Origin: Escherichia coli | GTDB lineage: Bacteria; Pseudomonadota; Gammaproteobacteria; Enterobacterales; Enterobacteriaceae | Reading direction: 5' to 3' (one strand) | Length of the DNA stretch: 64,000 bases | NCBI RefSeq assembly: GCF_003019035.1 | Contig: NZ_CP027447.1 | Part shown: piece by piece, positions 16,309 to 48,290 of the stretch | Layout of the letters: every line of letters starts with the position of its first letter | Position numbering within the stretch: the first letter of the stretch is position 1 | Notes under the pieces: generated by a model | Database searches by the model: none | What the model was told of the DNA's origin: nothing | What the model saw: only the letters and a program-made list of their open reading frames with translations | Made by a program: the position numbers and the translations under genes

Positions 16309-16376
16309 ACAACATACGAGCCGGACGCATAAAATGTAAAGCCTGGGGTGCCTAATGAGTGAGCTGACTCACATTA
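16309..16376 (-). promoter_or_regulatory. lac promoter (-10 tatgtt, -35 tttaca) and CRP/CAP site (tgtgagtcagctcact)
   Basis: Motifs read on the reverse complement; CAP half-sites TGTGA/TCACT intact, spacer differs by one base from the canonical K-12 site. Confidence 0.85.
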
Positions 16377-17471: not shown

Positions 17472-17547
17472 ATTCACCACCCTGAATTGACTCTCTTCCG
17501 GGCGCTATCATGCCATACCACGAAAGGTTTTGCGCCATTCGATGGTT

Positions 17548-18381
17548 TCAGCGTAAATGCACGCCGCTTCGCCTTCCCGCTACCAGAATAGCCTGCGATT
17601 CAACCCCTTCTTCGATCTGTTTTGCCACCCGTTGCAGCGCCGGAAGATGCTTTTCCGCTGCCTGTTCGATGGTCATTGCGCTCGCCATATACACCAGATT
17701 CAGACAGCCAATCACCCGTTGTTCACTGCGCAGCGGTACGGCGATAGAGGCGATCTTCTCCTCCTGATCCCAGCCGCGGTAGTTCTGTCCGTACCCCTCT
17801 TTGCGCGCGCGCGCCAGAATGGCTTCCAGCTTTAACGGTTCTCGTGCCAGTTGATAGTCATCACCGGGGCGGGAGGCTAACATCTCGATTAATTCCTTGC
17901 GTTCTTGTTCCGGGCAAAAGGCCAGCCAGGTCAGGCCCGAGGCGGTTTTCAGAAGCGGTAACCGTCGCCCGACCATTGCCCGGTGAAAAGATAAGCGGCT
18001 GAAACGATGGGTGGTTTCGCGTACCACCATTGCATCAACATCCAGCGTGGACACATCTGTCGGCCATACCACTTCGCGCAACAGATCGCCCAGCAGTGGG
18101 GCCGCCAGTGCAGAAATCCACTGTTCGTCACGAAATCCTTCGCTTAATTGCCGCACTTTGATGGTCAGACGAAAACTGTCATCGGAGGTACTGCGCCGGA
18201 CATATCCCTCTTCCAGTAACGTCTCCAGCAGTCGCCGCACAGTGGTGCGATGCAGGCCGCTGAGTTCCGCCAGCAGCCCGACGCTGGCACCGCCGTCAAG
18301 TTTATTTAACATATTTAATAACATTAGACCGCGGGTTAAGCCGCGCACGGTTTTGTATTCCGTCTGCTCATTGTTCTGCAT
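17548..18381 (-). CDS. mhpR: IclR-family transcriptional activator of the mhp operon
   Basis: IclR-family ORF divergent from mhpA; start set at MQNNEQ..., with ATG 18393 as alternative. Confidence 0.9.
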   Translation of the reverse strand: MQNNEQTEYKTVRGLTRGLMLLNMLNKLDGGASVGLLAELSGLHRTTVRRLLETLLEEGYVRRSTSDDSFRLTIKVRQLSEGFRDEQWISALAAPLLGDLLREVVWPTDVSTLDVDAMVVRETTHRFSRLSFHRAMVGRRLPLLKTASGLTWLAFCPEQERKELIEMLASRPGDDYQLAREPLKLEAILARARKEGYGQNYRGWDQEEKIASIAVPLRSEQRVIGCLNLVYMASAMTIEQAAEKHLPALQRVAKQIEEGVESQAILVAGRRSGVHLR

Positions 18382-18413
18382 ATTAATTGACATTTATATA
18401 GTTAAAACAACGT

Positions 18414-18430
18414 TGTGCACCTGGTGCACA
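18414..18430. promoter_or_regulatory. Perfect palindrome tgtgcac-ctg-gtgcaca in the mhpR/mhpA divergent region; candidate MhpR and/or CRP-like operator
   Basis: 7-bp inverted arms with 3-bp spacer, about 140 bp upstream of the mhpA start. Confidence 0.5.
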
Positions 18431-18571
18431 TTCGGGCATGTTTTGATTGTAGCCGAAAACACCCTTCCTATACTGAGCGCACAATAAAAAATCATTTACA
18501 TGCTTTTAACAAAATAAGTTGCGCTGTACTGTGCGCGCAACGGCATTTTGTCCGAGTCGTGAGGTACTGAA

Positions 18572-20236
18572 ATGGCAATACAACACCCTGACATCCAGCC
18601 TGCTGTTAACCATAGCGTTCAGGTGGCGATCGCTGGTGCCGGTCCGGTCGGGCTGATGATGGCGAACTATCTCGGCCAGATGGGCATTGACGTGCTGGTG
18701 GTGGAGAAACTCGATAAGTTGATCGACTACCCGCGTGCGATTGGTATTGATGACGAGGCGCTGCGCACCATGCAGTCGGTTGGCCTGGTCGATAATGTTC
18801 TGCCGCACACTACGCCGTGGCACGCGATGCGTTTTCTCACCCCAAAAGGTCGCTGTTTTGCTGATATTCAGCCAATGACCGATGAATTTGGCTGGCCGCG
18901 CCGTAACGCCTTTATTCAGCCTCAGGTCGATGCGGTAATGCTGGAAGGATTGTCGCGTTTTCCGAATGTGCGCTGCCTGTTTTCCCGCGAGCTGGAGGCC
19001 TTCAGCCAGCAAGATGACGAAGTGACCGTGCACCTGAAAACGGCAGAAGGGCAGCGGGAAACGGTCAAAGCCCAGTGGCTGGTGGCCTGTGATGGTGGGG
19101 CAAGTTTTGTCCGTCGCACCCTGAATGTGCCGTTTGAAGGTAAAACTGCGCCAAATCAGTGGATTGTGGTAGATATCGCCAACGATCCGTTAAGTACGCC
19201 GCATATCTATTTGTGTTGTGATCCGGTGCGCCCGTATGTTTCTGCCGCGCTGCCTCATGCGGTACGTCGCTTTGAATTTATGGTGATGCCGGGAGAAACC
19301 GAAGAACAGCTGCGTGAGCCGCAAAATATGCGCAAGCTGTTAAGCAAAGTGCTGCCTAATCCGGACAATGTTGAATTGATTCGCCAGCGTGTCTACACCC
19401 ACAACGCGCGACTGGCGCAACGTTTTCGTATTGATCGCGTACTGCTGGCGGGCGATGCCGCGCACATCATGCCGGTGTGGCAGGGGCAGGGCTATAACAG
19501 TGGTATGCGCGACGCCTTTAACCTCGCATGGAAACTGGCGTTGGTTATCCAGGGGAAAGCCCGCGATGCGCTGCTCGATACCTATCAACAAGAACGTCGC
19601 GATCACGCCAAAGCGATGATTGACCTGTCCGTGACGGCGGGCAACGTGCTGGCTCCGCCGAAACGCTGGCAGGGTACGTTACGTGACGGCGTTTCCTGGC
19701 TGCTGAATTATCTGCCGCCAGTAAAACGCTACTTCCTCGAAATGCGCTTCAAGCCGATGCCGCAATATTACGGCGGTGCGCTGGTGCGTGAGGGCGAAGC
19801 GAAGCACTCTCCGGTCGGCAAGATGTTTATTCAGCCGAAAGTCACGCTGGAAAACGGCGACGTGACGCTGCTCGATAACGCGATCGGCGCGAACTTCGCG
19901 GTAATTGGCTGGGGATGCAATCCACTGTGGGGGATGAGCGACGAGCAAATCCAGCAGTGGCGCGCGTTGGGCACACGCTTCATTCAGGTGGTGCCGGAAG
20001 TGCAAATTCATACCGCACAGGATAACCACGACGGCGTACTACGCGTGGGGGATACGCAAGGTCGCCTGCGTAGCTGGTTCGCGCAACACAATGCTTCGCT
20101 GGTGGTGATGCGCCCGGATCGCTTTGTTGCCGCCACCGCCATTCCGCAAACCCTGGGCAAGACCCTGAATAAACTGGCGTCGGTGATGACGCTGACCCGC
20201 CCTGATGCCGACGTTTCTGTCGAAAAGGTAGCCTGA
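18572..20236 (+). CDS. mhpA: 3-(3-hydroxyphenyl)propionate hydroxylase (FAD monooxygenase)
   Basis: 554-aa ORF with N-terminal FAD fold GAGPVG. Confidence 0.95.
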
Positions 20237-22066: not shown

Positions 22067-23828
<1,762 letters not shown>

Positions 23829-47828: not shown

Positions 47829-48290
47829 CTTAAAAACCTATCCCGTCTAACACAAAGTGCATACATTACCACGACAAAACGGGGGATTCGCGGCCTTCTG
47901 ACAGAATGTTGCAATCTTCTGCTGACAAAGCGTGCAACGTACTGGTGAAGAAAGTGCGTTATCTCAATGATGTGCGCAAGATCACAAAAATGATGAACGG
48001 GAAGCTAATTTATTCCTGGCTTGTATGGCCATGCAGTGAGTTTTTTTCTCTTAATTATAAGTTAACGAAGAGAATATATTTCATAACTTTTATTTATAAT
48101 AAAGGTTGATAATTAAAAGCCTATATTTTGTGTGGGTAATTATTAAAATAAGAGAAACGTTTCGCTGGTAATCAAACAAAAAATATTTGCGCAAAGTATT
48201 TCCTTTGTCATAAAAATAATACTTCCAGACACTATGAAGTTGTGAAACATAATGTTAACTTCTCCATACTTTGGATAAGGAAATACAGAC

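Follow-up and report, generated by a model that had tools for sequence, protein, structure and literature searches.

A perfect palindrome between mhpR and mhpA of Escherichia coli is very probably the operator of the IclR-family activator MhpR

The closest described system is the operator of the mhpA promoter (Pa) of Escherichia coli K-12. A comparison of IclR-family motifs gives the E. coli MhpR motif as GGTGCACCTGGTGCACA and credits it to Torres et al. 2003 (PMC8222616, Table 1). The compounds 3HPP, PP and DHPP bind MhpR and stimulate its contact with the operator in the mhpABCDFE promoter (PMC11237407), the allele for which this effector-enhanced binding was described being that of K-12 (Torres 2003 and Manso 2009, summarised in PMC11237407). 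In published work, phenylpropionate acts synergistically with 3-hydroxyphenylpropionate in strengthening the binding of MhpR. Furthermore, MhpR activates Pa in a 3HPP-dependent manner, and CRP requires it for binding (PMC8753852, citing Torres 2003). RegulonDB lists a CRP site upstream of mhpR/mhpA. The mhpR promoter (Pr) is constitutive toward 3HPP, PP and DHPP (PMC11237407). The operators of PcaU, PobR, PcaR and HmgR, which make up the GTNCG-N5-6-CGNAC group (PMC8222616), resemble that of MhpR in being palindromes of about 15-17 bp with a GT-C...G-AC symmetry and in lying beside the regulator gene, in a divergent promoter region.

The window, i.e., the whole stretch of 64,000 nucleotides of E. 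coli DNA that was analysed (contig NZ_CP027447.1), contains a palindrome, read out as TGTGCACCTGGTGCACA, within the 190-bp region between mhpR (minus strand) and mhpA (plus strand) of the chromosome (Table 1). According to the RefSeq annotation of an identical strain, lacZ, lacI and mhpR are located on the minus strand and mhpA, mhpB and mhpC on the plus strand, and positions 17500-18700 of the window are 100% identical to several complete E. coli genomes. A repeat search resolved the palindrome into TGTGCACC-T-GGTGCACA, with arms of 8 nt that are 100% complementary and 1 nt between them. The perfect palindrome reported here by the initial annotation, as 7-bp arms around three bases, is indeed present, and 8-bp arms with a central T describe it better. 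The distance to mhpA, given there as about 140 bp, was accurate too, as 141 bp separate the right end of the palindrome from the mhpA start codon (ATG at 18572). The 21 bp given for mhpR apply to the longest open reading frame (ATG at 18393, 281 amino acids) and not to the RefSeq start codon (ATG at 18381), which is 33 bp away. In an alignment of 16 enterobacterial sequences, the ATG at 18379-18381 was invariant and the ATG at 18393 varied; this conservation across genera of the former and not of the latter indicates that the real offset between palindrome and mhpR is 33 bp. The MhpR protein carries both an N-terminal HTH_IclR domain (PF09339) and a C-terminal effector domain (IclR_C; PF01614), each above its cut-off, and scores 345.8 bits against the NCBIfam equivalog NF007341 (cut-off 269). 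A search for a solved structure of MhpR yielded none, the nearest DNA-bound relative being the distant TtgV (entry 2xro).

Table 1. Coordinates of the features in and around the mhpR-mhpA divergent promoter region of the window.
Feature	Position	Strand	Basis
MhpR operator, T-GTGCAC-CTG-GTGCAC-A	18414..18430		Perfect 8+1+8 palindrome, centre 18422; published K-12 operator; conservation
mhpR, IclR-family activator, 277 aa	17548..18381	-	RefSeq annotation; Pfam HTH_IclR and IclR_C; NCBIfam NF007341
mhpA, first gene of the regulated catabolic operon	18572..20236	+	Annotation; NCBIfam NF004827 at 1287 bits
Block TGTTTTGATTGTAGC, T-tract and putative Pa -35 TTGTAG (18447-18452)	18439..18453		15/15 columns invariant in 16 enterobacteria
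TACAAT, likely -10 of Pr	18451..18446	-	Inside the invariant block
TATACT, putative -10 of Pa	18469..18474	+	Invariant in 16 enterobacterial sequences
Best intergenic CRP-like site, TACTGAGCGCACAATAAAAAAT	18471..18492		Centre 18481.5; 6.1 bits; rank 68 in the window
Weak CRP-like site, TGCAT-N6-TGACA	18374..18395		Centre 18384.5; 6/10 core bases; 2.3 bits; overlaps the mhpR start codon

As to the identity of the palindrome, the alignment with K-12 MG1655 had exactly GGTGCACCTGGTGCACA at the homologous position. The palindrome and the K-12 operator of Pa share the locus, the flanking genes and the position relative to the promoter elements, and are identical at 16 of their 17 bases. The sole mismatch is the outermost, mhpR-proximal base, which is T in the window and G in K-12, the T extending the symmetry from 7+1+7 to 8+1+8. 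Together with the co-occurrence of the motif with MhpR orthologues, described below, the match to the K-12 operator bears out the resemblance to an IclR-family operator that had been pointed out from the sequence. It is concluded, with a probability of roughly 0.93, that MhpR, the product of the adjacent gene and an activator of the IclR family, has the palindrome as its operator, the binding itself being known from the literature. This operator is already known as such, and the T allele and the breadth of its conservation are minor additions. Unlike in the group of PcaU, PobR, PcaR and HmgR, the MhpR half-site, GTGCAC, is itself palindromic. An external third half-site, as in PcaU, PobR and HmgR, was not seen beside the MhpR operator, the adjoining block TTAAAACAAC being unlike a half-site.

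The outermost base is polymorphic within the species. Position 18414, which is T in the window, corresponds to the G at position 368453 of the K-12 genome (NC_000913.3). Among about 5031 complete E. coli genomes carrying the region, 3256 had the T allele and 1506 the G allele, as counted with two 45-bp megablast queries in which each 28-mer seed covered base 18414. The perfect palindrome is thus the common form in E. coli (about two thirds of the genomes), and K-12 carries a less symmetric minority allele. T is the consensus outer base among orthologous sites as well (58 of 77), its partner base being A in 52 of the 77.

Conservation was assessed at 80 loci of MhpR orthologues, retrieved from species-representative genomes with an alignment of 16 diverse MhpR proteins. 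The genera covered include Escherichia, Citrobacter, Klebsiella, Raoultella, Kluyvera, Pluralibacter, Vibrio, Pseudomonas and Stutzerimonas, as well as Azotobacter, Azomonas, Marinobacter, Marinobacterium, Zobellella, Lampropedia and Xanthobacter. At 77 of the 80 loci, GTGCAC-N3-GTGCAC occurs within 400 bp upstream of the regulator gene, in taxa ranging from Enterobacterales to Xanthobacter. This count overstates the independent support, as the loci are phylogenetically related. The 12 hexamer positions are each kept in 74 to 77 of the 77 sites (at least 96%), and the inner three bases vary, with a flanking pair of the form Y..R and a centre that is mostly T. The window site equals the 77-site consensus at 17/17 positions, and 23 of the 77 orthologous sites are perfect 8+1+8 palindromes. 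The pair at the positions ±1 is complementary in 51 of the 77 sites, compared with 33 expected from the base frequencies, which is only indicative since the sites are related. In RNA, this pair would enclose a loop of 1 nt and could not form, so that its covariation points to symmetric recognition of DNA.

The 447 kb of DNA that had been fetched contained only 80 matches to the 12 core bases (at most one mismatch), namely the 77 sites and three extra ones, the latter being second operators in Marinobacterium, located just downstream of mhpR and before an mhpB-like gene (L053, 2671-2685; L063, 3301-3315; L075, 3323-3337). In this genus, two MhpR-type operators flank mhpR, one toward mhpD-F-E and the other toward the mhpB-like gene, and both show the same operator, T-tract and TTG spacing. 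At three loci, L035 and L043 (Vibrio) and L062 (Lampropedia), GTGCAC-N3-GTGCAC was absent from the 2.5-kb flanks, the best matches having 3-4 mismatches; the operators of these loci may have diverged in sequence or be located elsewhere. The MhpR orthologues of these three loci show 62-74% identity. Overall, the motif tracks the mhp catabolic genes rather than one particular neighbour. In most loci, the gene driven from the operator is mhpA. An mhpB-like dioxygenase gene takes this place in Stutzerimonas, related Pseudomonas and Xanthobacter, and in Azotobacter, Azomonas and Marinobacterium it is taken by mhpD-mhpF-mhpE.

A fixed order of elements follows the operator. Downstream of its centre come a T-tract, a TTGnnG at +25 to +30 and, 16-18 bp further on, a -10-like hexamer. 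The block of T-tract and -35 occupies +24 to +30 from the operator centre in enterobacteria, Pseudomonas and others, and TATACT or CATACT is found at +47 to +54 in most loci. The -10-like hexamer itself is TATACT in most loci and CAGAAT, CAAAAT or TAGAAT in a few. In the window, TTGTAG follows the operator centre at a distance of 25 bp and TATACT at one of 47 bp, the palindrome being located between the divergent mhpR and mhp operon and before the -35 of the catabolic promoter. A scan with a strict consensus found no sigma-70 promoter in 18300-18620, an outcome to be expected of activator-dependent promoters whose -35 is poor; the assignment of the promoter elements is based on cross-genus conservation, not on the consensus scan. 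From this geometry, transcription from Pa would start near 18480, which would place the operator centre at -58. Torres and co-workers reportedly located the operator at this same position of Pa, with which the sequence geometry agrees, and are said to have placed the CRP site of Pa at -95.5. A further position, -40.5, is likewise reported and agrees with the sequence.

The promoters of mhpA and mhpR apparently overlap in a back-to-back arrangement (18446-18474). The -35 of Pa shares bases with the TACAAT on the minus strand, the -10 of Pa sits where the -35 of mhpR would be, and the best intergenic CRP-like site covers the -10 and the presumed start of Pa. The two promoters may thus compete for polymerase. 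Two further conserved elements are present in this region. Directly adjoining the operator toward mhpR is the block TTAAAACAAC (18402-18411), with an AAACA core that does not vary among 16 enterobacteria. It is found in most Pseudomonas loci, including those in which the mhpR start is more than 200 bp away (L036-L040), and is absent in Marinobacter and Marinobacterium. It could represent an extended MhpR contact or a docking region for the alpha-CTD of the polymerase, at about -70 to -77 of Pa. A larger symmetric element, composed of AAAACA and TGTTTT on either side of the operator, was considered and rejected, as it would be centred 2 bp away from the middle of the operator and Marinobacter lacks the left block. 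In the mhpA leader, 18495-18511 (minus strand TGTTAAAAGCATGTAAA) shows the pattern TTYACAT...TTAACAA, conserved in 16 enterobacteria. On the minus strand, it consists of two TGTTA-like direct repeats 11 bp apart, which we take to be the pattern of an ArcA box. ArcA has been reported as a direct repressor of mhpR (Park et al. 2013, PMC3798270).

Of the other functions that the palindrome might have, binding of cAMP-CRP deserves attention, as the initial annotation had likened the palindrome to a CRP site. Under this explanation the palindrome itself, alone or shared with MhpR, would read catabolite repression directly. Dependence on CRP is a known property of the mhp promoters, and both the palindrome and the cAMP-CRP sites (e.g., that of lac at 16355-16376 of the window) are inverted repeats of the type TGTG...CACA in a CRP-dependent promoter region. 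When a 7-bp spacer is allowed, TGTGC-N7-GCACA agrees with TGTGA/TCACA at 8 of 10 bases. However, the half-sites of the palindrome are separated by 7 bp instead of 6 bp and end on the inside in C/G in place of A/T. With the canonical 6-bp spacer of TGTGA-N6-TCACA, only 5 of 10 core bases agree in either register, so that the proposed likeness does not hold. The palindrome scored -1.4 to -2.0 bits, below 1600 other positions of the window, and the lac CRP site scored 16.0 bits and ranked first, with an approximate, symmetrised weight matrix of 16 classical sites, which includes the K-12 lac site and makes this control partly circular. Furthermore, the motif is equally invariant in Pseudomonas, Azotobacter and Xanthobacter, half-site position 5 is C, not A, in 76 or 77 of the 77 sites for each half-site, and the spacing is invariant in all 77 loci. 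Lastly, the better CRP-like sequences at 18471-18492 and 18374-18395 agree with where CRP has been annotated or reported at Pr and Pa, respectively. A role of the palindrome itself as a CRP site is therefore very improbable. At the RNA level, the palindrome, besides being an operator, would be transcribed in the mhpR leader and fold into a 7-bp hairpin, with consequences for the stability of the mhpR mRNA, its translation or its early termination; this role is improbable as well, albeit to a lesser degree. In its favour, the TACAAT on the minus strand is conserved, and mhpR transcription probably starts near 18439-18441, which would put the palindrome downstream of the start, where it would cover roughly +10 to +26 of the leader. 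A simple scan found it terminator-like on the minus strand, with a stem followed by ACGTTGTTTT, and the hairpin has a predicted energy of about -9 kcal/mol. In addition, the mhpR mRNA rises 15-fold at pH 4.4 although the promoter is constitutive (PMC11237407), a post-transcriptional rise without a change in promoter activity. Against it, the whole mhpR leader folds no better than shuffled sequences (z = 0.36), and the run of U starts 3 nt from the stem and counts just four consecutive U. The 12 stem positions show no compensatory change among the 77 sites, which argues for a sequence-specific rather than a structural constraint. Moreover, conservation is just as strong where the motif cannot belong to the mhpR leader, namely in L036-L040 and L082, in which it lies over 180 bp upstream, and in Marinobacterium, where a copy lies downstream of mhpR. 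On account of the detached U-run, the folding of the leader and the invariant stem, membership in the terminator or leader-hairpin class was rejected.

The palindrome could also be a functionless chance feature. Perfect 8+1+8 palindromes are not rare, as dinucleotide-shuffled 64-kb windows contained 1.25 on average and 75% of the shuffles had at least one. The real window has a single one, namely the site between mhpR and mhpA, so that the count alone gives it no significance. Its functional weight comes instead from its position in the divergent promoter region and from its conservation. The chance that such a palindrome would land inside this 190-bp region was estimated at roughly 0.4%, and its presence at 77 of 80 loci, in several orders and at a fixed distance from the promoter, together with the match to a published operator, refutes an origin by chance, the probability of which is practically nil. 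A second copy of the palindrome was not found within the window with up to three mismatches allowed. Besides this site, the window has just one perfect palindrome with arms of 8 bp, CCACCATT-CC-AATGGTGG at 23285-23302, which lies inside the mhpF coding region and is probably due to chance, as 4.7 such palindromes (spacers of 0-3 bp) are expected per shuffled window.

Two further possibilities may be mentioned. Part of the rise in mhpR mRNA at pH 4.4 could be due to the hairpin or to MhpR occupying it, and the G/T polymorphism could set differing MhpR affinities and induction thresholds by lineage. Taken jointly, these two ideas are speculative and have a slim chance of being correct.

Catabolite control and control by MhpR, which the initial annotation had proposed to be integrated by the palindrome, do meet at this promoter, yet by way of separate CRP sites and not within the palindrome. 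As MhpR is needed for the binding of CRP at Pa, the integration takes place between proteins at the promoter and not through a shared sequence. The CRP-like sequence at 18471-18492 is a probable CRP site of the mhpR promoter. In the Reg-Seq preprint, CRP is annotated at -38 to -59 of mhpRp2, with a -10 signal near -20 in the same coordinates (PMC12132413), and these positions fit 18471-18492 and the minus-strand TACAAT if the annotated start is 18433. Neither this annotation nor the site listed in RegulonDB, which likewise fits 18471-18492, coincides with the palindrome. The Reg-Seq supplement has no mhpR entry. Similarly, the sequence at 18374-18395 is a candidate CRP site of Pa, its centre lying at -95.5 from a start at 18480; this sequence is not conserved in Klebsiella. 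Elsewhere in the window, the lac CRP site reads TAATGTGAGTCAGCTCACTCAT on the minus strand and differs from K-12 TAATGTGAGTTAGCTCACTCAT (L002, 395-416) by one T to C change in the spacer. The second-best CRP-like sequence of the window, TGATGTGCGCAAGATCACAAAA (47968-47989), is located between ddlA and iraP, with 9/10 core bases and 13.9 bits by the approximate matrix.

Activation of the mhpA promoter may be pictured as follows, with the binding of MhpR, its dependence on effectors and the recruitment of CRP taken from the literature (PMC11237407, PMC8753852). A two-fold symmetric MhpR oligomer would place one winged helix-turn-helix on each TGTGCAC half-site, and 3-hydroxyphenylpropionate, with phenylpropionate acting in synergy, would strengthen the binding to the operator. 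Positioned near -58, about 25 bp upstream of the weak -35 TTGTAG, MhpR would then activate the sigma-70 RNA polymerase at the mhpA promoter, presumably by direct contact, and would let cAMP-CRP occupy a separate weak site further upstream. Activation by MhpR combined with a CRP action that depends on MhpR would make induction require both the aromatic substrate and the absence of glucose.

The site is a textbook operator of a well-studied promoter of aromatic acid catabolism and has little significance beyond its correct annotation. In this respect, the finding that its likeness to a CRP site is superficial is a guard against mis-annotation. Both the operator and its distance to the -35 have been kept over a range of taxa that reaches from Enterobacterales to Pseudomonas, Marinobacter and Xanthobacter, and the clean consensus T-GTGCAC-YWR-GTGCAC-A can be used for the annotation of MhpR regulons and for the design of 3HPP biosensors.
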